Virus record (IMG/VR): IMGVR_UViG_643348545_000009
Span: 1-53,655 of that record
Direction: 5' to 3' (one strand)
Length of the DNA: 53,655 bases
From: a virus
Lineage: Duplodnaviria; Heunggongvirae; Uroviricota; Caudoviricetes
Numbering within the stretch: position 1 is the first letter of the stretch; each line of letters starts with the position of its first letter. The position numbers and the translations under genes are program-made. Below, piece after piece: positions 832-49,010 of the stretch. The notes below the pieces were generated by a model, which was given only the letters and a program-made list of their open reading frames with translations, had not been told where the DNA came from and searched no databases.

Positions 832-2016
832 TTAAAACTCGAAGTTCACACCAACGTTCCAGGAGGCATCGCCATCACTGAATGCCACGCCTGCTTTCGC
901 TGCGGTCTGCTCGTTGAAGCGGTAACCCACACCCACCGCCAGTGCCTGCTGGTCGCTGTAACCACCAACCGCTGCCGTGGCGTTGAATTTACCCACACTG
1001 TACGGCTGGAACAGACCTGTCAGGGCCGCAGACTGTGCTGCTGCACGCTTCATTTCCTTGTGGTTTTCATTAATCTGGCGCTGCTGGCTGTCCAGACGTG
1101 CTGAATGTTGCTGCAGCGTACGGGTATTGGCTGCAATCGCCTTGCTGTTTTTCTCAATGGATTGCGTGTTACGGGTGACACGGCCATCAATGGCACCAAC
1201 TGCTGCATCAATACGGTCAGTACGACCAGACAGGGCCACCAGACCATCGTTAACAGAAATGGTGTTCTTTGCACCTTCTGCACGGGTCAGGGTGCCATCA
1301 GAACTCACACCAACCAGTGTGCGGGATTCGACTTTTGCAGCTGTTGCAGCAGCCGCAGCATCAATCTTGTCGGTACGCGTGGTCAGTTTACCAAGATTTT
1401 GCTTCTGCGCTTCAAGCTCGCCTTTCTGAGCATCAAGCTCATTCGCAACAATGGTGGAGTGGGCGGCCTCCCCTGCCAGATAGCGCTGTAAAGACATGTG
1501 TTCTTCTATTTCACTCGGATCTGCTGCCACATTTCCATACTTATCCAGGCCGACGTTGGTTTTCATCTGCTGGATTGCTGAAACGCGGTTGTACAGGTCA
1601 CGGATATTCTGTTCTGTCAGAAAAACTCCATCATTCTTACGCGCCAACAGTTTATCTTTCCCTGATGCCGCAGTCTTCATAAAATCATGAAGCTCTTTAT
1701 CATAAACAGTAAATGTTGTCGAACCATCCGCAGAGGTAATTGTAACATTACCATTGACATCTATTTTACTTAGCGCCTGAATCGTTTCCCCCCTCTGCGA
1801 TGCTATACTTCCGTCCTGCCCCCATTTTATATAAGCCGTTTTTGTAGCACCATCAAAATATATCCCATACATAGAACCTGAATTACCGTTTTCCGTTTTT
1901 AGCGCAGAATAATCCCCCGTAGCATCCTGTGTATCCTGTGCAAACGATACACAAGGAACAAACAGCGCTGAAAAAACTGCCGCAGACAAAACAGCCTTTG
2001 TAAACTTCTTGCTCAT
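832..2016 (-). CDS. Trimeric autotransporter adhesin with YadA-like C-terminal anchor; Eib-like (immunoglobulin-binding protein) prophage cargo candidate
   Basis: 394-aa ORF; signal peptide [26 protein letters not shown]; long coiled-coil stalk; C-terminus ...[33 protein letters not shown] typical of YadA/Eib beta-barrel anchors; lies just outside the tail fibre genes. Confidence 0.7.
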
Positions 2017-3296: not shown

Positions 3297-4778
3297 TCAG
3301 TATGCGCGCTGGAACAGCCCGATGCCTTCATTGTCATTTGTCGACGTAATTTCATTACACACCATCCATGACCCCGGAACTGAGGATAGGTTGCCGTCAA
3401 TGCCATCGGTGTTAGCTTTCATATAGTTTCCGTTTTCGTCTTTGATTAGGGCGCATCGCTTAAGGCGTGAACCCGATACAGTTTCTCCTGGCTGATAGGT
3501 TCTGCCGATGTCGGTTATATACGGGCCTAGTGCGGCAATAATGTATGTTCCGATGCTGTAAATTTCCCCGGGTACCAGCCTTCCGGTTGGCCCTTGTGGT
3601 CCCTGTGGTCCCTGTGGTCCGGTTTTACCATCCAACCCGGGCGGTCCCATCGGCCCTCGCCCTCCGGCAGGGCCCCGTGGCCCCGGAACACCCTGCGCCC
3701 CCGCTGGTCCCCTTTCACCTCGTGGCCCTGCCGGACCTGCCTTACCTTCCGCTCCGGCGGTACCATCCTTTCCTGCGGGGCCTGCATCACCTTTGGGACC
3801 AGCTGCACCAGCCGGTCCCCGTGGGCCTGCGGGCCCCACTGCACCAGGTGCGCCAGGTTCCCCCCTGTCCCCCTTCGGTCCGGGGACTGCTGCCCGGGTT
3901 GCTGCCTCTTCTGCCTTCGTTTTTGCTGCCTGCACTTCTGCCATTACCGCTTTCACAGCCTTTGGGGTTGCCGCTTTTGTTTCATCATCGCTGTTGGTAT
4001 CGCTGCTCAGCTGTACAACACCTTTCTGTGATGTGCTGGCATCCGGAACACTGGCGACACTGCCTGCGGGACCCGCAGGACCTGTTGCGCCGGGTTCACC
4101 TTTATCCCCTTTCGGGCCGGTTTGCCCTGCCGGACCCTGTGGTCCGGGTGGTCCGGGTGGTCCGGCCTCTCCACGTGGGCCGGTGTCACCTTTCGGCCCC
4201 GGCGGTCCGCCCGGGTCACCTTTATCGCCCTTCGGTCCCTGTGGACCTGTTTCTCCCCGTTCTCCCTTTGGCCCCGGCTCACCTTTTGGTCCGACCGCCC
4301 CCGTTGCCCCGGCTGGTCCCTGTGGCCCTGTGGCACCCTGTGGACCTGTGTCCCCCTTCTCGCCCGCCGGTCCCCGGGCATTCTCTGCCCGTTTCTTCGC
4401 TTCCTCTGCACTCGCCGCCGACGCTTCAGCACGCTTCAGGATTTCCGCTGCCACCGCTTCCAGCTCTGCAAGCGCTTTCGGGTAATACTGCGCCTCATCC
4501 TGTTCCATCAGAAATTTATTCAGCGTTCCCGGCTCAGAATCCGCCTTCACCAGAATGTCACCCACATACGACGGGGCGTACCCTTCCGTGTTCAGCGTCA
4601 CCCGGTACCACCCCGGCTCCACATCAAAACTGTAACTGCCGGTTTCCCCCGGCTGCCCCTGCGCCACCGTGGTGACTATCACTGTCTCTGTGGTGCGTCG
4701 CGCTTTCAGCTCTATGGTGCATCCCGGCACCGGCTTCCCGGTGCCGTCCTTCAGCACGCCCGATATTCTGACTGTCAT
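3297..4778 (-). CDS. stf: Side tail fibre protein (Stf) with collagen-like Gly-X-Y repeats
   Basis: 493-aa ORF; conserved phage tail fibre N-terminal region, then long runs of GPxGxxG collagen-like triplets; ATG at 4776-4778. Confidence 0.85.
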
Positions 4779-4962: not shown

Positions 4963-7900
4963 TCACGATGCGGTATCAAAATCGTCTGTATAGGATTTCA
5001 GGTAAAACAGAACCGGGTCCGGGATCCGAATTTGACTCGTATCATGAAGTATTGAACCACCCCTGTAAAAAAGCACACCTGCTTCATACCTGAATGTAAT
5101 TTCAACCCGCGCATCACCCTGTCCGGCAGGAATACCCCATGAGCCTGACGCACTTCCGCCAACATCAGAATATACCGGCTCATATCTGCTGGCGTTTTTG
5201 GAAATCTGGACCTCCCGCTCCCCGGTTTTGACTTTGCCTGACCTGGCATGAACGACAACTTTGTCATTTATCTTCATGATGAATTCACCTCTGGAAAATG
5301 AATACGCCATAAGCATAAGCTTGCGATCAAACGGCATGTTGTCTTTCAGCAAAATCATTTTCTGAAAAGTCAGCTGGTTCTGAGTCATTACGCCCTGCCC
5401 CATATCAACCGTGTATCCCTTGACGATATCACCAATGATTCGGTCAGCGCTCATCGTTCCATTAATGGTGCAGTCTTCCGCAATCGTCACGTTATTCAGC
5501 GTACCGGAACTGGCACTGATATTCCCGCTGATATCGGCATTACGGGCCGTCAGCCTGCCGTCCGGCGTCAGGGAGAATGCCGGGGGATTGCCGCCGCTGG
5601 TAATGGTGGGGGCGGTAAGAACCTTTATCAGGGCCTCATTGATAAACGTCTGTCCCCCCTGCGTGACCAGTGCGGGTGTGGTATCACCATTCTCCGGATT
5701 AATGAATGCCACACGGTCCGCTGCCAGCAGTATCTGGCTCTGCATCCCGTCAGGGGTGTTCTCAATACCGGCACCGATACCGGCAATATAGCGACGACCA
5801 TCCTGCATCTGCTGTAGCTTCACCGCCCACATGCTGTTCAGGTCATTATTTGTGTCCGTCTGCACACGCTGGATTTGCTGTATGGTGGCGTTCTGGTCCT
5901 CCAGCGTTTTACTGACCGTCTGCGTGATTTCATTGCGGGTTTCGGTGATGGTGGTCTGCATTTCCGCCATCTCGTCCTTCAGCTGACTGTTGTCAATCTC
6001 TGCCCACAGCGCCTCTGCCAGATGCGTTTTTCCTATCTTTTCCCGGAAAAGTTCCAGATAGCCCGCAGCATCATTGCTCGCCCGTCCACTGGCTTCCACA
6101 AAAGCAGATTTACCCACCAGGTTGACGCTGCGCACATAAAACCAGAAATCCTTTCCGGGCTTAATGTGCGGACCGGAGACACTCCACTGACTGCCGGTCC
6201 CCAGATAACGGGCAGAGGTTTCCACCTGTGCGGCGTCTGCAATTTTTGCCTCCGAAAACCAGAACTCAAACTGCACCGTCGGGTCATAAATGGTCAGTTT
6301 CGGGACTGCCGTTATCTGAAAATACCCCGGCGTCAGTTCAACACCGGCAGGCGCTGCCGGTGCGTTAATCCGGAACGTGGTGGTGGCGGGTTCGCCCTGC
6401 TGGCCATAGCTGTTAATCGCCCTGACCGTCAGGGTGTATTCCCCGAGAGGCAGGCCACTGAAACGGTGCTCCGTATCGGCAGTGATGGCGGTGGTCAGCA
6501 GGCGGCTGTTCTCACCGCTTCCACTGGTCAGGCGCAGACTGAAGCGCACGCCCTTCACCACCCGCGGCGTGTCCCATTTCGCCAGCGCCAGATACTGGCC
6601 GTCAGCTGCGCTCACCTCCACCGTCAGGTGCTGCACTGCCGGTGGGATAACGCTGTTCAGGGTGCCTGACTGCGGCTCAAAGCGGGCTCCGTTATCCACA
6701 ATGGCTTCTTTTTCCGGTACGTGCTGCACCGCCGTGATGGCAAAGGTGCCGTCCGTGTTTTCCCGGATGGCCACACAGCGGAACAGGCGACGGCGCAGTG
6801 ACGGCAGGGAGAGTCCCCACACCCCGTATGTCTCCACACCATCAGGCAGGGTACTGACCTGTATCCGGTCCGGCGCGGGGTGTGCGGTGATGTCCACACT
6901 CACCGGCTTACCGCTGCCGTTAATCAGGTTCACCGTCGATGCACCTGTCCCCGGAAGTGTCACTTCACGGTCCAGCGTCAGGGTGCGGGTGGCAGCATCG
7001 ATGGACAGGACACGTCCGCCGGTCAGGGTCCCGGCATAGTCGTTATCACAGATTTCAATAATGTCACCGGGTGTGTGCCGCAGCCCCTGAGACCCGAGTG
7101 TGAAATCCACCGTCTGCGTTTCCAGCAGTTCGGTCTTTATCACCCACAGCCCGGCACGGTGGGCCTGACCGCGGCTGGTACAGCCGAACGCGTCCATCTT
7201 CAGCAGGTTGCGTCCGTAGCGCAGTATGGCTTCCGGGTCTTCCACCAGTTCCGTGGAGGTCTGCCAGCCGTTCTGCGGGTCGGTGTAATTCACCTCCACC
7301 GCCGTGTGCCGGTCCTTCAGGGCACTGAAGCTGTAGCGGAACCCCACGCCGTTATCATCCACCACCACATCGCTGTTGGTGTACGGCCACACCACATCCG
7401 ACGGGCGGTCCTGAACGAACGTCAGCGTCTGGCCGTTCCATACCGGCATACAGCGCATCGCCGAGCAGAAATCACTGAGAACGTCCCACGCCTTACGCTG
7501 TTGTGCCAGGTACGCATTAAAGGTCATCCGCGGCTCTGTGCCCCCGAATCCATCCGGGACCGTCTGGTCGCAGTACTGCCCGATGGCATACAGCGCCCAC
7601 TTGTCCACATCCGCCGCCCCCAGGCGTTTTCCCATCCCGTAGCGCGGGTGAGTCAGCATGTCCCACAGGCACCAGGCCGGGTTGTTGCTGTATGCCGGTT
7701 TCAGACTGCCGTCCCAGATACCACTGTACGTGCGTTTTTCCGGGTCATAGTTTGACGGCACCTGGATGATGCGACCGCGGATATGGTAGTTCACCGTCAT
7801 CTGCTGGCCGCCGAACTGCTCCGCATCCACCTGCAGCCCCACAATGGCCGTGTTCGGGTAGCACTGTTTCACATCGATGATTTCGGTGTATGACGACCAG

Positions 7901-8493
7901 AGCGTCTTATTCTGCAGCTGGTCCGTGGTGCTGTCCGCCGTCTCCCTGACCATCCGGATGTTAAAGGGGCGGGGAGGCAGATTATCCAGAATCACCGACG
8001 CAAGGAACTGTGAGGTGGTCTTGCCGTTAATGGTGACATCCTTTTCCGTCACCCAGTTACCGTTACGCAGTAACTGAATCAGCAGACGGACAGAGGACGG
8101 ATTACGGTCACCCTTTGACGTGGTCTCCACCAGTGACTGCACCCCGAAGGTCACCCGCAGGCGGTCAATGTTCGCTGACGTAATGGTGCGTGTCACCGGT
8201 TTTGCCCTGGTCACTTCCACACCCAGTACAGTTTCAGAGCCGGAGGACTCAAAGCCTTCCGGTGGTGTCTGCTCCTGCTCCCCGGCGCGCCAGACCGCGG
8301 TCACACCGTGTATCACGGGATTACCGTCCGTGTCCGTCAGCGGGGTTTTGTTCACCAGAATACTCTGCAGGCCTTTCACCGGACCTTCAATGGGTCCCTC
8401 ACCAATCGCATCAATCACGCTCATCATCTGCGTGGATTTGAGGTTGTCTTTCGCCTCACGCGGTGTGTGCGCCCTGCCGCCACCTTTGCCCAT
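4963..8493 (-). CDS. J: Tail tip / host specificity protein J
   Basis: 1176-aa ORF; N-terminus and overall size match lambda J family; follows I in lambda order. Confidence 0.9.
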   Translation of the reverse strand: MGKGGGRAHTPREAKDNLKSTQMMSVIDAIGEGPIEGPVKGLQSILVNKTPLTDTDGNPVIHGVTAVWRAGEQEQTPPEGFESSGSETVLGVEVTRAKPVTRTITSANIDRLRVTFGVQSLVETTSKGDRNPSSVRLLIQLLRNGNWVTEKDVTINGKTTSQFLASVILDNLPPRPFNIRMVRETADSTTDQLQNKTLWSSYTEIIDVKQCYPNTAIVGLQVDAEQFGGQQMTVNYHIRGRIIQVPSNYDPEKRTYSGIWDGSLKPAYSNNPAWCLWDMLTHPRYGMGKRLGAADVDKWALYAIGQYCDQTVPDGFGGTEPRMTFNAYLAQQRKAWDVLSDFCSAMRCMPVWNGQTLTFVQDRPSDVVWPYTNSDVVVDDNGVGFRYSFSALKDRHTAVEVNYTDPQNGWQTSTELVEDPEAILRYGRNLLKMDAFGCTSRGQAHRAGLWVIKTELLETQTVDFTLGSQGLRHTPGDIIEICDNDYAGTLTGGRVLSIDAATRTLTLDREVTLPGTGASTVNLINGSGKPVSVDITAHPAPDRIQVSTLPDGVETYGVWGLSLPSLRRRLFRCVAIRENTDGTFAITAVQHVPEKEAIVDNGARFEPQSGTLNSVIPPAVQHLTVEVSAADGQYLALAKWDTPRVVKGVRFSLRLTSGSGENSRLLTTAITADTEHRFSGLPLGEYTLTVRAINSYGQQGEPATTTFRINAPAAPAGVELTPGYFQITAVPKLTIYDPTVQFEFWFSEAKIADAAQVETSARYLGTGSQWSVSGPHIKPGKDFWFYVRSVNLVGKSAFVEASGRASNDAAGYLELFREKIGKTHLAEALWAEIDNSQLKDEMAEMQTTITETRNEITQTVSKTLEDQNATIQQIQRVQTDTNNDLNSMWAVKLQQMQDGRRYIAGIGAGIENTPDGMQSQILLAADRVAFINPENGDTTPALVTQGGQTFINEALIKVLTAPTITSGGNPPAFSLTPDGRLTARNADISGNISASSGTLNNVTIAEDCTINGTMSADRIIGDIVKGYTVDMGQGVMTQNQLTFQKMILLKDNMPFDRKLMLMAYSFSRGEFIMKINDKVVVHARSGKVKTGEREVQISKNASRYEPVYSDVGGSASGSWGIPAGQGDARVEITFRYEAGVLFYRGGSILHDTSQIRIPDPVLFYLKSYTDDFDTAS

Positions 8494-11017: not shown

Positions 11018-11079
11018 GTCAATATTTCCTAATCCGATTTGTTGATACCGAAGCCCTGACTGTTACAGCAGTTGGGGCT

Positions 11080-11220
11080 TCAACTTTTTAGGCTGCGAAT
11101 AAGACGCTGCACTATTTCTGAATTTAAAGACCTGCCCTCCTCCTTAGCCTTTTCCTTCAATTTTTCTTTAATCTCTGGCGGGATACGAATCCCTAATGGA
11201 GCGATATCTCTAACTTTCAT
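11080..11220 (-). CDS. arc: Arc-like ribbon-helix-helix repressor
   Basis: 46-aa product MKVRDIAPLGIRIPPEIKEKLKEKAKEEGRSLNSEIVQRLIRSLKS resembles P22 Arc (…NGRSVNSEIYQRV…); internal ATG at 11218-11220 chosen over the longer ORF. Confidence 0.7.
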   Translation of the reverse strand: MKVRDIAPLGIRIPPEIKEKLKEKAKEEGRSLNSEIVQRLIRSLKS

Positions 11221-28589: not shown

Positions 28590-28716
28590 AATGTTAACTG
28601 CTGCCTGGTTAACATTTGCTGAAAAAGCCAGTTAACATTTTTTCCATGCAACAAACTGAATAATAAAGATAAAAACCGAAAAAATGCCCGGACAGCCAGT
28701 TAACATGTTAACTGGC
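28590..28716. other. cos / terminase-recognition candidate: clustered GTTAAC-containing repeats
   Basis: TTAACAT-type motifs at 28591-28600, 28607-28618, 28629-28641 and a perfect 14-bp palindrome GTTAACATGTTAAC near 28699-28712, between HNH and terS. Confidence 0.35.
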
Positions 28717-28805
28717 CTGAAACGGGAATTTTTTCTCTGCGTGAGACGGGGCGCGGTGTCCGGGACGATCGTTTTTATCGCCGGATGATCCCCCCCCAGG
28801 GCGGG

Positions 28806-29171
28806 TCACAGTCCGATGATATCGTCTGCCCTGCCACGACCTCCGGACACTTCCGGCAACGTCGGGTCCGGCATACCACTCGCCGCTTCACTGGCTGACT
28901 TCTGGCGATGACATTCAGTACAGAGCGTCCAGAGATTCGTCTCCTCATTACCACCACCGAACTGAAGTGCAATTCGGTGATCGAGTTCACTGTCACAGAG
29001 GTCAACCACACGCCCACAGAGACAGCACTGCCCGGCGTCCCTCAGCCAGATATGACGCTTGAGGGAAACACGTGCACTGCCACTGACACGACGCTGTTCC
29101 CCCTTCAGAATATTCACCCGTCGGGTATTCAGTGTTTTGATTCTGCTCTGGAGTGTACGAAGCTCAGCCAT
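28806..29171 (-). CDS. HNH endonuclease (packaging-associated)
   Basis: 121 aa; …CCLCGRVVDLCDSELDHRIALQFGGGNEETNLWTLCTECHRQK… HNH motif; adjacent to cos-like region and terminase. Confidence 0.85.
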   Translation of the reverse strand: MAELRTLQSRIKTLNTRRVNILKGEQRRVSGSARVSLKRHIWLRDAGQCCLCGRVVDLCDSELDHRIALQFGGGNEETNLWTLCTECHRQKSASEAASGMPDPTLPEVSGGRGRADDIIGL

Positions 29172-29212
29172 GTAAAATCCCCGTCATATGGCAATCAGTA
29201 AAGGAAATAAAT

Positions 29213-29413
29213 ATGTCATCGAAAAACCGGACCCGCAGAACCACAACCCGCAATATCCGTTTCCCCAATCACATAATTGAACAGATCAACATCGCCCTTG
29301 AGCATAAAGGGTCCGGTAACTTTTCAGCGTGGGTTATTGAAGCCTGCAGGAGAAGGCTGGCAACAGATGCAACGCATCTGCGCCCGGCCAGCATGAAAAA
29401 TAACGAGAAATGA
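29213..29413 (+). CDS. Ribbon-helix-helix (CopG/Arc-like) DNA-binding protein
   Basis: 66 aa MSSKNRTRRTTTRNIRFPNHIIEQINIALEHKGSGNFSAWVIEACRRRL…; AAGGAA upstream of ATG 29213. Confidence 0.5.
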   Translation: MSSKNRTRRTTTRNIRFPNHIIEQINIALEHKGSGNFSAWVIEACRRRLATDATHLRPASMKNNEK

Positions 29414-29544
29414 ACGTTCGGTTACAGGAGCAGGTACCCACTGTCCTCCAACAATATTTCATCTTCATATCCGACGGAACAAGACTTACCCTGCCGGGAT
29501 GTACAGAATAACAACAGAGTGATAATTAATTTCTGATGAAATAA

Positions 29545-29877
29545 TCAGGGTGCAGAAGGACTAAAGATAAACGTTTTCTTCACGCCTTTACACGGCCTGT
29601 CCTTCTCAAATCGCCATTTTGCCATCGCCTTTACAACCTGCTCATCAAACAAATGGTGCGGCTCTGAACGGATAAACTCAATTCGGGTGACTGTACCATC
29701 AGCACCAATATCAAACTTCACATCAACCCGTCCCTTTATATAATTTGCCGCTGCATAGGCCGGATATTGTGGTAATGCCTTCACCAACTGTCGGGGCATA
29801 TCTGTTTTATGTTGCGTACAGCCCATAACCAGAGAAGACAACAAAATAATTAACGGAAGATTTCTTTTCATTTTCAT
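29545..29877 (-). CDS. Outer-membrane lipoprotein with TonB C-terminal domain
   Basis: Lipobox LVMGC with Thr at +2; …PQYPAYAAANYIKGRVDVKFDIGADGTVTRIEFIRSEPHHLFDEQVVKAMAKWRFE… aligns with TonB C-terminal domain (…PQYPARAQALRIEGQVKVKFDV…). Confidence 0.65.
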   Translation of the reverse strand: MKMKRNLPLIILLSSLVMGCTQHKTDMPRQLVKALPQYPAYAAANYIKGRVDVKFDIGADGTVTRIEFIRSEPHHLFDEQVVKAMAKWRFEKDRPCKGVKKTFIFSPSAP

Positions 29878-30304
29878 TCCCGGCACAGATAAGAATAAGT
29901 CTTATTCTAACAATGCCACCCTGTCGGTCATCAATCCTCTGCTTGATGGCAACGACAATTATCCGACTTAAATCACAAATCAGACACATAACAGGGCTTG
30001 CGAGGTAACACATCGTCCGGTTTCTTCCACCATCGCACCGGACGAGCGACCATGAGGGGACAACGCCGCGCGCCGTTAACGCGGTAAACCCCGGTGTGTA
30101 TCGTTTTTGATTATCCCCGCACACTCGCGCAGAGGAGTCTCCCGGTCGGGCTGCGGTCATGGTTAATGCGGGAATACGGCGACGATACAGCGCATGATAT
30201 GTCAGGCTTGAATACCTTTATCCGTTAAAAAGGATATCAGTTAAGTTATCCCGTGCAGGGTATAAGCCATTATCAAGCCCACCAGTAGATGGGCTTTGTA
30301 ATGG

Positions 30305-30562
30305 CTACTTCGCTTTTGCTTCCGCTCGCTTACACCGGCGCTTTTCTTTCTTCTCGGCTTTTGCCATGTCCATGAATGCCTGCATGATCGAGTTCCGCAT
30401 CATGTAGCTGACAAAGTGATGATTGACACAGCCGTTGAGGCGCAACTGCTCGCCAAACTCATCCACCGAGGCCAATGCTTCCATCACGCCCTTCTCGCCT
30501 TTCATGAACGCTGAGAAGTCGCGCCCCGCTCTGGAGGCGCATTCAATGACACGATCACTCAT
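30305..30562 (-). CDS. Hypothetical protein, translationally coupled to KilA-N gene
   Basis: 85-aa ORF; ATG overlaps stop of upstream gene (ATGA); terminator-like hairpin GCCCACCAGTAGATGGGC just downstream. Confidence 0.45.
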   Translation of the reverse strand: MSDRVIECASRAGRDFSAFMKGEKGVMEALASVDEFGEQLRLNGCVNHHFVSYMMRNSIMQAFMDMAKAEKKEKRRCKRAEAKAK

Positions 30563-31125
30563 CCCGGAAGCCCGGGGATTGTGATCTGCAACTGGTTAGC
30601 CAGGGAGTTAATCTCAGCGATCAAACCAGGTTTCGTGTAGCGCCATGCCGCAAGGCCTTGCCCGCAGAAGCTCGCCATATCTTTTTTCTGATCAAACTCA
30701 TGACACTTCATATTGAGCTGCGCACTTAAGCTGTTGCGATGCTGGAGTTCTCCGGTGAAGTAGTCATCCAGGACTTTATAGGCTGCATATTTAAATCCGG
30801 GGTTTAGCCATGCTGCATAATCATAAGCAACAAACTTCCCGCCATATGTTCCACCGTGTACACCGCGCTCAGTAAAAACCACAGATTCGTGGTTTTTCTC
30901 CAGCTCGGCTAAGAACTCTTTGGTCTGCTTGTTTCGCAGGTAGTGGTACGGAGATTCAGATTCACTTTTACCACTGGCTTTCCACATATCAGTGAGGCAG
31001 ATCATGCCATCTTCAGCGACACGGATTGGCTGATTGAAGAGGGTTAATGATTTCATGTCGTATACCTGTTCTTTGAAATGAACCTTTGCCGCATAGGAAA
31101 CCAGCCCACCGAGGCTCGCCAGCAC
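30559..31125 (-). CDS. KilA-N domain protein
   Basis: …SLTLFNQPIRVAEDGMICLTDMWKASGKSESESPYHYLRNKQTKEFLAELEK… KilA-N/APSES-like; true start may be the internal ATG at 31056. Confidence 0.65.
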   Translation of the reverse strand: MLASLGGLVSYAAKVHFKEQVYDMKSLTLFNQPIRVAEDGMICLTDMWKASGKSESESPYHYLRNKQTKEFLAELEKNHESVVFTERGVHGGTYGGKFVAYDYAAWLNPGFKYAAYKVLDDYFTGELQHRNSLSAQLNMKCHEFDQKKDMASFCGQGLAAWRYTKPGLIAEINSLANQLQITIPGLPG

Positions 31126-31254
31126 TAACTGGTATCCTCAAAGGCTCATTCCAAAGGGGCAGGCTCGGTGGTTATCATGCGCTGCGGTGCGCGGTGAAAT
31201 TCAGATATGAAAAAGCCCACGCGTTTACGTGGGCTGGTGTGCATGACGTCAGGA

Positions 31255-31584
31255 CTAACCGATGAGTTTTAAATCAGCTTTTCGGTGTTTTTTCTGATCG
31301 GTATAAAAATTTTCATGTGGACCGATGCTAAGGAGGTAGAGCTCAAGTTTATCGTCAAGCCAGCTGTAACCCAGAAGCACCAGTTGATTATTCAGCTGAA
31401 ATTTATGCACACGAAGAAAACTGAGGTCTCCTTTCTTTTGCGTTCCCAACAGAGGATTATCAATTATTCTGTCGATCTCATCTTCCACAACTTTCAGTTG
31501 CGCTTCCGGGAGTTTACTCAGAGACTTTTCAAAACGCCGACTCTGATAAACATCAATTTCACGACCTGTCTGTTCTTCTGACAT
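31255..31584 (-). CDS. Type II toxin, RelE/ParE superfamily
   Basis: 109 aa; …GDLSFLRVHKFQLNNQLVLLGYSWLDDKLELYLLSIGPHENFY… typical RelE/ParE fold signature; overlaps upstream antitoxin gene by 26 nt. Confidence 0.7.
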   Translation of the reverse strand: MSEEQTGREIDVYQSRRFEKSLSKLPEAQLKVVEDEIDRIIDNPLLGTQKKGDLSFLRVHKFQLNNQLVLLGYSWLDDKLELYLLSIGPHENFYTDQKKHRKADLKLIG

Positions 31585-31789
31585 AACGCGTTACCTTGTT
31601 GTGTCTGATTTCGCTTTGTGACAGCAGAACTTCGCTAATAAAACTGAATGGCAGATCTGGATTATCTTCAGCTATACGACCAATCTTAGCCCAGTGCTCA
31701 ATTTGCTTTGGTATGCTGCGACTTGCGGCATCAGCGTGAACCTTTACGTCACTGACGAAATCATCGTCTAAACGGATGCTTGTTGCCAT
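31559..31789 (-). CDS. Type II antitoxin, ParD-like
   Basis: 76 aa MATSIRLDDDFVSDVKVHADAASRSIPKQIEHWAKIGRIAEDNPDLPFSFISEVLL… matching the ParD-like antitoxin family pattern. Confidence 0.7.
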   Translation of the reverse strand: MATSIRLDDDFVSDVKVHADAASRSIPKQIEHWAKIGRIAEDNPDLPFSFISEVLLSQSEIRHNKVTRYVRRTDRS

Positions 31790-31930: not shown

Positions 31931-32398
31931 TTAATTCAGGCACTGAGTACGGATATATTCCTGTGCCCCTTCCAGTTGCTTCTGCATCGTCATCAGCCGC
32001 TCTCTGAGGGTGAAATAATCCCGTTCAGCGGTGTCTGCCAGTCGGGGGCCGGTTGCATTATCCACGCGGGCGGTGCCGGTGGCTTCACGCACGGGACCTG
32101 GACAGGTGGCGTTGATACGCAGGCTGCGGCGACCAGCGGCAACGTCAGCGCGAAGAGTTTCATTTTCAGCTCTCGCATCAGCTAATTCCCTCGAGTATTT
32201 TGCATCGAGCGCAGCAACATCACGCTGGCGCACCTGCATATCAGTAATGGTTGCGTTTGCCAGCTCCAGCTCTCTGACTTTTTTATCGCGCTGCGCTTTG
32301 TAGGTGATGGCGTTATCGCGGTAATGATTCAGCCCCAGACTAAGCACACCACAGGCTACCAGCAGGACAATAATCACCACACACAGAACACGGTTCAT
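31931..32398 (-). CDS. Rz: i-spanin Rz
   Basis: N-terminal TM ([21 protein letters not shown]) then coiled-coil periplasmic domain; contains embedded Rz1 frame. Confidence 0.8.
31993..32163 (-). CDS. Rz1: o-spanin Rz1 (lipoprotein embedded in Rz)
   Basis: [34 protein letters not shown]…: lipobox AAAC, proline-rich, in +1 frame within Rz. Confidence 0.75.
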
Positions 32399-38235: not shown

Positions 38236-38290
38236 TTATGAATTCTGGTTAAAATCCATTCGATTATAAAAATGTATATCTCATGCTGTT

Positions 38291-38316
38291 GCCCGAACCC
38301 ACTCGGGCTTTTTTTT
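38291..38316 (+). terminator. Plus-strand intrinsic terminator-like hairpin
   Basis: GCCCGA-ACCCACT-CGGGC followed by T8. Confidence 0.4.
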
Positions 38317-38326
38317 GCCCACAAGA

Positions 38327-38556
38327 AAGCCCCTCCGGAGAGGGGCTAAAGCCGCGTATCTGTATCATCATGCACATGGTGCCGGGTGCCTCCCGGTGAG
38401 TTCAGCCCGGTGCCACTAAACCCGCGTCATTCTCGTTTTGATAATCAGAGATTATACCGTCACCAGTCGCCCCTCCGCTCAGGGGGATTCACCATGCGAA
38501 ATTTTTTTAACAAATGCCCAGTCTGACAGGCAACTGTCAACTTACTGAATTGTGAG
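38327..38556. repeat. Copy A of a ~230-bp hairpin-rich element
   Basis: Shares with copy B: AAAGCCCCTCCGGAGAGGGGCT, ATGCCGGGTGCCTCCCGGTGAGTTCAG, CCCCTCCGC.CAGGGGGATTCACCATGC, TTTTAACAAA, CAGTCAAC, CTGAATTGTGAG, in the same order. Confidence 0.6.
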
Positions 38557-38812
38557 CAACATAGCATTTAACGGGGAACCTGTTTTCTGCAGTAAAAAGG
38601 CCCACCGGAGCGGATGGGCCTGGAAGGATAGCGGTCATGTGATGCCGGTTTCCCGGTAACTCAGCACCGGTATCTGAGTCAACGTTTTCTCTACTGGGTC
38701 ATTTCCGATACGCCCTGCCTGCTGACAGGCTTTCATCACATCTGAAAATATAGCACCCTGACTGATACTGTAGTACCTAAGGTTCCAGAAACTGTGATGT
38801 ATCCGGCACAGA

Positions 38813-39039
38813 AAAGCCCCTCCGGAGAGGGGCTGGAGAGTGGCGCTATGTGCCATTGCATGATGCCGGGTGCCTCCCGGTGAGTTCAGTATCAGCACCT
38901 GAACCCGCACAGAAAGGATAAGGGTCGGTGACAAAACACCAGTCGCTGATTGCCCCTCCGCACAGGGGGATTCACCATGCCAGTTTCTTTTAACAAACTC
39001 CCCGCAAACCAGACAACAGTCAACCGCCTGAATTGTGAG
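38813..39039. repeat. Copy B of the ~230-bp hairpin-rich element
   Basis: Same ordered motif set as copy A; diverged spacers. Confidence 0.6.
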
Positions 39040-42352: not shown

Positions 42353-42508
42353 TTACTCCTCAGGTTCGTAAGCTGTGAAGACAGCGACCTCCGTCTGGCC
42401 GGTTCGGATTCGTACCTCGCAGAGGTCTTTCCTCGTTACCAGTGCCGTCACAATGACGGTAATACAGATGACGATCAGGGCGACTAACATCGCCTTTTGC
42501 TGCTTCAT
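42353..42508 (-). CDS. hok: Hok/Gef family type I toxin (HokD/RelF-like)
   Basis: 51 aa MKQQKAMLVALIVICITVIVTALVTRKDLCEVRIRTGQTEVAVFTAYEPEE, near-identical to recalled HokD. Confidence 0.9.
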   Translation of the reverse strand: MKQQKAMLVALIVICITVIVTALVTRKDLCEVRIRTGQTEVAVFTAYEPEE

Positions 42509-42744
42509 AGCCTGCTTCTCCTTGCCTTTCGGCGTGTAAGAGGCTAACCTACATGTGACTAGCATGAAATTGGCCTCAGATTAATGTTAAGCGTCCTGCA
42601 AGACGCATAATGTTAACTGGGGCTTTTCTCTATCTGCCGTTGGTGTTCATGCCCGAGGCAGATAGCCTCAAGCACCCGCAGCAATTCTACTTAACTCACG
42701 TCACCTCGCCAATATGAAATCAATCAGAAAGGTGATCCATAAAA

Positions 42745-48952: not shown

Positions 48953-49010
48953 CCCATGCGTAGTCTTTGGTGGCATCAGTTCTACTCCGTGACTGCTCTG
49001 CCACCCTTTT
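48953..49010 (+). ncRNA. dicF: DicF-like small RNA with terminator
   Basis: …TTTGGTGGCATCAGTTCTACTCCGTGACTGCTCTGCCACCCTTTTT closely matches recalled E. coli DicF (…TTTGGCGGTATCAGTTTTACTCCGTGACTGCTCTGCCGCCC); lies just upstream of dicB. Confidence 0.6.

Follow-up and report, generated by a model that had tools for sequence, protein, structure and literature searches.

Why would a lambdoid phage carry, among its late genes, a lipoprotein built on TonB's C-terminal domain? The question is raised by a gene on the minus strand of the IMG/VR virus record IMGVR_UViG_643348545_000009, all 53,655 nucleotides (nt) of which were analysed and are referred to here as the window. The window is a lambdoid prophage of Escherichia coli whose late genes run on the minus strand, and the gene lies between those for lysis and terminase. 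We conclude that it is best explained as a self-contained lysogenic-conversion cassette (a moron), and that its product may be an unpowered TonB decoy, which would compete at TonB boxes and jam TonB-dependent import; to this reading of its function we give a probability of roughly 45%.

A predicted outer-membrane lipoprotein with a TonB C-terminal domain

The open reading frame (ORF) covers positions 29,545–29,886 of the minus strand. Translation most likely starts at the ATG at 29,871, which gives a coding sequence (29,545–29,871, stop codon included) for a protein of 108 amino acids (aa) beginning MKRNL; RefSeq uses the same start in identical genes, and an ATG at 29,877 and a GTG at 29,886 are in-frame alternatives. 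Residues 1–18 (29,818–29,871) read as a lipoprotein signal peptide. The N-terminus, MKRNLPLIILLSSLVMG followed by a cysteine, combines a basic n-region, a hydrophobic core and the lipobox V-M-G-C; lipidation is expected at Cys18, with which the mature protein would begin. This cysteine is invariant in 30 family members, and the residue at +2, Thr in the window, is T, S, A or V across the family and never D. With no Lol-avoidance residue (Asp at +2) in the family, the protein is predicted to be a lipoprotein of the outer-membrane type, in agreement with the original prediction, made from the DNA alone, of an outer-membrane lipoprotein of about 110 aa with Thr at +2.

All 67 IMG/VR copies that carry the start motif (80 loci were returned) keep an intact 108-aa ORF. 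Relative to the allele of phage 21, the ratio of nonsynonymous to synonymous substitution rates (dN/dS) is 0.12 and the synonymous sites are saturated. Since the ratio is this low despite saturation, it indicates that the gene is under strong purifying selection.

Residues 26–104 (29,560–29,796, minus strand) form a TonB C-terminal domain equivalent to residues 153–231 of E. coli TonB, as found with Pfam, NCBIfam, alignment to PDB chains and AlphaFold/Foldseek. The claim that the protein consists essentially of this domain is thus confirmed: Pfam TonB_C (PF03544) matches with E = 1.3e-14 and 54.8 bits (cut-off 24.6), and NCBIfam tonB_Cterm (TIGR01352) matches with 1.1e-14 and 54.5 bits (cut-off 27.1) over positions 1–74 of 76. 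The 79 residues align with TonB 153–231 without a gap, and 31 of them (39%) are identical.

We modelled the protein with AlphaFold, using a 30-sequence alignment of the family as input. The predicted local distance difference test (pLDDT) score exceeds 95 over residues 30–100, and the model shows an alpha/beta fold in which a three-stranded sheet is combined with two helices. The top Foldseek matches are the C-terminal domain of E. coli TonB in its free form (1u07), bound to BtuB (2gsk_B) and bound to FhuA (2grx_C), with target-normalised template modelling (TM) scores of 0.88–0.92. The model superimposes on these three structures with a root-mean-square deviation (rmsd) of 1.1–1.2 Å, so the superposition on TonB that had been suggested as a check speaks for the assignment. 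All significant matches in the PDB are TonB domains; a structure search of BFVD returned nothing significant.

The YP motif, strand beta3 and five core aromatic residues (the equivalents of F180, F202, W213, Y215 and F230) are kept relative to TonB. Two positions are changed: Q160 is replaced by L33, at a position that is not conserved in the family, and in place of R166 stands a Tyr that almost all members share. The protein ends in a Pro-containing tail (FIFSPSAP) at the equivalent of TonB residue 235 and has nothing that corresponds to strand beta4 of TonB. A review of the Ton system describes beta4 in free TonB as pairing with beta3 or mediating dimers, and as being displaced when beta3 pairs in parallel with the TonB box of a transporter. 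Because the lipoprotein has no counterpart of beta4, the pairing edge of beta3 should be free. Only about eight residues separate Cys18 from the first residue that aligns with TonB.

A probable self-contained cassette in the lysis–terminase slot

To define the limits of the cassette, we compared positions 28,700–31,300 of the window with phage 2851 (L002) by blastn and consulted the annotation of that phage. The two share both flanks of a 674-bp segment (29,342–30,015), in place of which phage 2851 has an unrelated 272 bp. On the left, the boundary falls within the 3' third of a convergent DUF3950 gene (see below), and on the right about 145 bp upstream of the lipoprotein start, so that the cassette comprises the 3' third of DUF3950, a spacer, the lipoprotein gene and its promoter region. 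It thus shows the presence/absence polymorphism with sharp boundaries between related phages that characterizes a moron. The slot between lysis and terminase genes is occupied in the same orientation in five unrelated lambdoid backbones. A self-contained lysogenic-conversion cassette is the best explanation of this arrangement. Over the late stretch around the gene, phage JLK-2012 is 96% identical to the window, and RefSeq names the gene there "TonB family protein" and its neighbour "YlcI/YnfO family protein".

We found no convincing terminator downstream of the lipoprotein gene (fold z-score −0.30), and Rfam gave no known RNA family between 28 and 31 kb of the window. The upstream leader folds somewhat better than shuffled sequences (z −2.9); its hairpin is not conserved in phage 21, and on these grounds, together with the lack of an Rfam match, a structured RNA near the gene was rejected. 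In phage 21, a 45-aa Cys-rich ORF is annotated just upstream of the TonB-domain gene (L012, 3846–3983), in DNA homologous to the leader of the window, where it is reduced to 17 codons (29,972–30,025, minus strand). It is probably not a gene; alternatively, the window allele has lost a leader peptide.

Distribution of the family

The protein belongs to a compact family of lipoproteins of 105–120 aa (about 110 aa), recovered from GTDB genomes and from protein sets of 5.8 and 1.8 billion sequences. Its members are 33–50% identical to the window protein and occur in Enterobacterales: Escherichia, Klebsiella, Raoultella, Pantoea, Erwinia, Serratia, Sodalis and Rahnella. Length and architecture are kept from E. 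coli to Serratia and Pantoea. The prophage copies always follow the lysis cassette and precede the terminase, on the late strand, despite differing lysis and packaging modules. Their backbones include phage 21 and PhiR47_2 (both with lambda-type Nu1/A, the gene standing beside bor), a Klebsiella phage and prophages of Sodalis, Rahnella and Serratia. Chromosomal copies are known in Klebsiella, Raoultella, Pantoea, Erwinia and Serratia. Stand-alone examples include the copy of Serratia grimesii, located in a conserved core neighbourhood between ycgN and dsbB; those of Klebsiella and Raoultella, which have a lacI-type regulator and a beta-galactosidase gene beside them; and that of Pantoea, set among metabolic genes. 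In none of the loci examined is a transporter or siderophore gene adjacent.

Of 5,426 complete E. coli genomes, at least 412 have the cassette of the window type, and 1,223, UTI89 among them, have the phage-21-type allele, whose protein is 72% identical; these counts were made allele by allele, and the two sets of genomes may overlap. In both phage 21 (L012, 3227–4327) and UTI89 (L175, 2888–3988), the lipoprotein gene is the divergent neighbour of bor/iss, a serum-survival lipoprotein gene much used as a marker of extraintestinal (ExPEC) and avian (APEC) pathogenic E. coli. In these two, a pair of outer-membrane lipoprotein morons therefore travels together.

Numerous database entries for the phage-21-type allele carry a C-terminus that is frameshifted or replaced, either shortly before beta3 or inside it (P0010, P0012, P0013, P0016, P0018, P0019, P0021 and P0030 in alignment A1), and one such cluster has 130 member sequences, whereas the 67 window-type copies are all intact. 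This suggests recurrent inactivation of the phage-21-type allele in some lineages. Existing names for the gene are "partial tonB-like membrane protein", "TonB family protein" and, curated for phage 21, "TonB C-terminal domain protein".

Promoter and Fur box

A sigma-70 promoter-like site (29,904–29,931, minus strand) lies inside the cassette and would give a leader of about 25 nt. It consists of ATGACC, a 16-nt spacer and the extended −10 element TGtTAGAAT, and scores 9/12 plus TG in a consensus scan. The −10 element is invariant in the 67 IMG/VR copies and is kept as TGTCAGAAT in phage 21.

We searched the family for Fur boxes with the 19-position consensus GATAATGATAATCATTATC, using as background 1,478 windows of 203 bp from the same loci. 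Matches of 14–17/19 within 60 nt upstream of the start occur in 16 of 26 non-redundant family loci, as against 8 of the 1,478 background windows, and usually end 10–12 nt before the start. These 16 loci are both chromosomal (Klebsiella, Raoultella, Pantoea, Erwinia and Serratia) and prophage-borne (Sodalis, 17/19; Serratia montpellierensis, 16/19), and their upstream regions fall into at least half a dozen unrelated sequences. Because near-consensus boxes recur in unrelated upstream sequences, the family is probably iron-regulated through Fur. The gene has long been annotated as TonB-like; the Fur association of the family is new in this analysis.

At the position of its relatives' Fur boxes, the window has an operator-like relic (29,888–29,906) that reads GATAAG AATAAG T CTTATT on the plus strand, in a 6-6-1-6 hexamer layout. 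It matches the consensus at 13/19, which taken alone is weakly significant (P ~0.02). The relic holds a perfect palindrome, AGAATAAG-A-CTTATTCT (29,892–29,908), and overlaps the −10 element and the transcript start. Since 13/19 is the best score and the 53-kb window contains 17 such sites, a canonical Fur box was rejected and we do not claim Fur control of the window allele. None of the ARG, Zur, CRP, FNR and LexA operators, compared by eye, fits the palindrome. The allele of phage 21 has lost its Fur box (10–11/19).

Proposed function and its rivals

We propose that the tether of about eight residues would keep a complete TonB C-terminal domain right beneath the transporters of the outer membrane, at their periplasmic mouth. 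There the domain would bind the TonB boxes of ligand-loaded TonB-dependent transporters by pairing of its TonB-like beta3 strand, and possibly those of group B colicins as well. Lacking a Pro-rich spacer, an anchor in the inner membrane and a connection to ExbB/ExbD, it could not pull the plug and would act as an unpowered competitor. Group B colicins, microcins and TonB-dependent phages (of the T1 and phi80 type) would enter less readily, at the cost of some siderophore and B12 uptake. In the wider family, Fur-driven expression would let the protein appear together with the receptors that it targets. The E. coli allele in the window, with its degenerate Fur box, would be expressed from the weak extended −10 promoter, and lytic growth would add read-through of the Q-antiterminated late transcript, which must cross the lipoprotein gene since the terminase genes lie downstream on the same strand. 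This last expectation follows standard lambdoid transcription.

Judged from the model and by analogy, a competitive decoy, as the original prediction had suggested, is plausible on structural and biological grounds. We favour it because the modelled fold is near-identical to receptor-bound TonB, the beta3 edge should be free and the tether is short; exported TonB fragments that inhibit, the precedent of Llp and Cor, and the conversion-gene slot beside bor/iss point the same way. Llp and Cor, outer-membrane lipoproteins of phages, block FhuA from the periplasmic side. Published work on exported fragments reports inhibition of the TonB system by periplasmic TonB 33–239, 103–239 and 122–239, made as signal-peptide fusions, and ascribes it to blocked TonB–transporter interactions. 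The mature lipoprotein corresponds to TonB residues ~145–235. According to Koedding et al. (2004), TonB C-terminal fragments of at least 96 residues reportedly bind FhuA, inhibit ferrichrome uptake and protect against phi80.

Several points weigh against the decoy. Both Q160 and R166, implicated in contacts of TonB with the TonB box or the plug, are changed in the lipoprotein. The inhibition described in the fragment work needed over-expression and fragments longer than this domain. The probably Fur-induced chromosomal copies of Klebsiella, Raoultella, Pantoea, Erwinia and Serratia call for caution, as a strong inhibitor would be self-defeating there: a pure inhibitor fits less easily with a family that would be switched on exactly when iron uptake is needed. 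The several frameshifted phage-21-type variants in the databases mark the gene as dispensable. No link to self-exclusion can be drawn, since the receptor of the prophage is not identifiable from its J protein. Literature searches found no functional study of any family member, and PADLOC does not include the lipoprotein and gave no meaningful match.

We put forward a broader reading tentatively, and rate it as possible but doubtful: Enterobacterales and lambdoid phages might share an unrecognised family of Fur-regulated, outer-membrane-tethered, dominant-negative TonB domains. Made together with the receptors of iron starvation, these decoys would throttle the engagement of TonB boxes and might thereby protect, over a broad spectrum, against group B colicins, siderophore-microcins and phages that depend on TonB. 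As a conversion gene, it would have been spread by phages; it is present in roughly a quarter of sequenced E. coli, in ExPEC beside iss.

A serious rival, albeit an unlikely one, is that the lipoprotein assists or modulates TonB-dependent transport when iron is limiting. The domain would then contact TonB's C-terminal domain or, transiently, exposed TonB boxes, and recruit or position scarce TonB or prioritise receptors, and phages would carry the gene for fitness in iron-poor niches such as the host. Fur boxes upstream of most members, including stand-alone chromosomal ones (the Serratia grimesii copy at ycgN–dsbB), amount to regulation of the iron-acquisition type; the aromatic residues used at TonB dimer interfaces are conserved, and in ExPEC the gene adjoins the virulence-associated iss. 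Yet beta4, the mediator of the crystallographic TonB dimers, is missing, and we know of no mechanism by which an unpowered TonB domain promotes transport. Moreover, transporter and siderophore genes are absent from the immediate neighbourhood in the loci examined, and extra periplasmic copies of the domain are inhibitory in the experiments with exported fragments.

It is improbable, too, that the protein is an envelope or virulence lipoprotein that uses the TonB fold for another ligand (peptidoglycan, a periplasmic protein or an imported substrate), as a conversion factor of the Bor/Iss kind. The gene does share the moron slot of bor/iss and is adjacent to them in phage 21 and UTI89. The C-terminal domain of FusB with ferredoxin (9hi3) is among the structural neighbours, so TonB-like domains can bind other ligands, and the family has exchanged R166 for an invariant Tyr of its own and does not conserve Q160. 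Nevertheless, the closest structures by far are enterobacterial TonB domains in the receptor-bound form, probable Fur regulation ties the family to the TonB/iron regulon, and the gene neighbourhoods suggest no other ligand.

A role as lysis accessory or outer-membrane spanin is largely refuted and very improbable. PHROGs labels the family "Rz-like spanin" (phrog_1267) with a strong match (5.7e-43), and in all prophage copies an outer-membrane lipoprotein is indeed encoded on the late strand right after the lysis cassette. The window, however, has its own complete pair, the i-spanin Rz (31,931–32,398, minus strand; Pfam Phage_lysis, PF03245, 6.7e-50) with the o-spanin Rz1 embedded in it (31,993–32,178, minus strand; Pfam Rz1, PF06085, 4.4e-21), and so does phage 21. 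The lipoprotein has no Rz1 match in Pfam and is a folded domain of 80 residues, not a short Pro-rich peptide; it is missing from otherwise similar phages (2851), and many members are chromosomal, probably Fur-regulated and far from lysis genes. We regard the label as a positional mis-annotation.

That the gene is a decaying, functionless remnant of a captured tonB fragment, as the frameshifted or truncated database versions and the older name "partial tonB-like membrane protein" might suggest, is hardly credible given the low dN/dS at saturated synonymous sites, a lipobox that is invariant across genera, the constant length and architecture, and the 67 intact copies.

The DUF3950 neighbour

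The convergent gene downstream (29,213–29,413, plus strand) encodes a 66-aa DUF3950 protein of the YlcI-YnfO type (Pfam 3.1e-19; NCBIfam YlcI_YnfO_N). The original prediction described it as a ribbon-helix-helix protein that may regulate the lipoprotein gene. Its position and length stand as described. The fold is plausible but weakly supported: the model has an extended N-terminal segment and two helices (pLDDT ~85), the best Foldseek matches, the ribbon-helix-helix antitoxins ParD2 and Rv0300, are at E > 3, a HicB-like PHROG match is weak, and a sequence search of the PDB gave no match.

The proposed regulation is not supported: the two genes differ in distribution, and on this ground DUF3950 was rejected as a dedicated regulator. 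DUF3950 is present in phage 2851, which has no TonB gene. Conversely, it is absent from every other backbone of the lipoprotein gene (phage 21, the Klebsiella phage, the prophages of Sodalis, Rahnella and Serratia, and all chromosomal copies). Its family is far larger, at 660 clusters to about 60 for the lipoprotein. Many more prophage places in E. coli have DUF3950 without the TonB gene: 3,504 places match a query made up of both genes, whereas the full query is found only in the 412 genomes given above. The recombination boundary of the cassette cuts the 3' end of the DUF3950 gene. DUF3950 travels with the HNH–terminase module and not with the lipoprotein gene.

Other features of the prophage

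On the minus strand, the late genes run from a NanS-p esterase through holin, endolysin, an antirepressor-like gene and Rz with the embedded Rz1 to a ParD/ParE pair, a strong terminator, a KilA-N gene, an 85-aa ORF and about 430 bp without a credible gene. Then follow the lipoprotein gene, DUF3950 (convergent, plus strand), an HNH endonuclease, the small and large terminase and the capsid and tail genes. The genes for the ParD-like antitoxin (31,559–31,789) and ParE-like toxin (31,255–31,584; both minus strand) overlap and are followed by a strong intrinsic terminator (31,214–31,235). Located between Rz and the KilA-N gene, the pair is another moron of the post-lysis region; the annotations of phages JLK-2012 and 2851 show no such pair there.

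Two copies of the small RNA (sRNA) STnc100 and one AsxR (anti-Stx2) sRNA are located at 38,261–39,009, between the Q region and the gene for the NanS-p esterase. In Shiga toxin (Stx) phages, the slot from Q to NanS-p is the place of stx. There is no ORF of the size of the Stx A subunit in 38,261–39,009, and the element looks like an stx-less relative of the Stx phages. Further Rfam matches above the gathering score are the sar RNA (11,019–11,085, plus strand), the sok antitoxin RNA (42,503–42,677, minus strand) and DicF (48,955–49,006, plus strand). The sar RNA is an antisense regulator of P22 ant, and sok is of the hok/sok type.

In the tail region, a side tail-fibre protein with long collagen-like Gly-X-Y repeats (3297–4778, minus strand) lies near a J-like tip protein (4963–8493, minus strand). 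The C-terminal receptor-binding part of the latter is of a rare type: among 50,697 phage records it is identical only in phage PhiR12_2, and it has at most 37% identity to other J proteins. Use of this domain to derive the receptor of the prophage for a test of self-exclusion was rejected because it is too rare, PhiR12_2 being its sole identical match; a literature search found no paper on PhiR phages. We saw no cor-like gene downstream of J in the window. Downstream of the tail-fibre genes, a 394-aa protein (832–2016, minus strand) that combines a signal peptide and a coiled-coil stalk with a YadA-like membrane anchor (PF03895) is an Eib-type trimeric autotransporter, and its gene is probably another conversion gene.

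Comparison with known systems

The lipoprotein shares with E. coli TonB (P02929, C-terminal domain ~150–239) the Pfam domain, the fold, the YP motif, the core aromatics and beta3. It differs in size (108 aa against 239) and in its anchor, a lipid in the outer membrane in place of the inner-membrane anchor of TonB. It also differs in lacking a transmembrane helix, a Pro-rich spacer, coupling to ExbB/ExbD and beta4, and in carrying Leu and Tyr at the positions of Q160 and R166. A bona fide TonB energy transducer was rejected as a candidate, as the NCBIfam TonB equivalog scores are all far below their cut-offs (e.g. 74 against 315); there are no exbBD genes near the lipoprotein gene. Should the protein instead prove to be an accessory of transport, it would be a missing component of the TonB system, the outer-membrane side of which is still poorly understood.

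The closest functional analogue of the proposed mechanism is provided by the engineered periplasmic TonB fragments, since they too are TonB C-terminal domains without a connection to energy. These were laboratory constructs, soluble, over-expressed, non-lipidated and longer, whereas the lipoprotein is tethered and has diverged from TonB to 39% identity.

Bor and Iss (lambda bor, ExPEC iss) are likewise outer-membrane lipoproteins encoded by a moron in the same slot downstream of Rz/Rz1. They have no relation to the lipoprotein in sequence or fold, bor is on the opposite strand, and their role is in serum resistance.

Llp of T5 and Cor of phi80, HK022, N15 and T1 are also small phage lipoproteins at the inner leaflet of the outer membrane, and they keep phages out by acting from the periplasmic side on a TonB-dependent transporter. 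Their fold is different, with no Llp or Cor structure among the Foldseek matches in the PDB and BFVD, and their genes lie beside those for receptor binding or tails, not in the lysis–terminase slot. Llp and Cor are specific for FhuA and act allosterically on its plug and loops, whereas the lipoprotein would use the generic TonB box and thus be broad in spectrum.

If it is a TonB decoy, it would be a new variant of the receptor-blocking lipoproteins of phages, one that mimics the energy coupler of the host, and a new strategy of exclusion. Given its high prevalence, it could affect host range in phage therapy, competition by colicins and microcins in the iron-poor gut and how well siderophore-conjugated antibiotics are taken up. 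Through its probable control by Fur, the family ties a mobile phage gene into the iron regulon of the host, and this offers a condition under which to seek phenotypes; together with a defined cassette and high prevalence, the Fur association makes the gene directly testable. Where Llp and Cor each close one receptor, a TonB decoy would act on all TonB-dependent gates at once.

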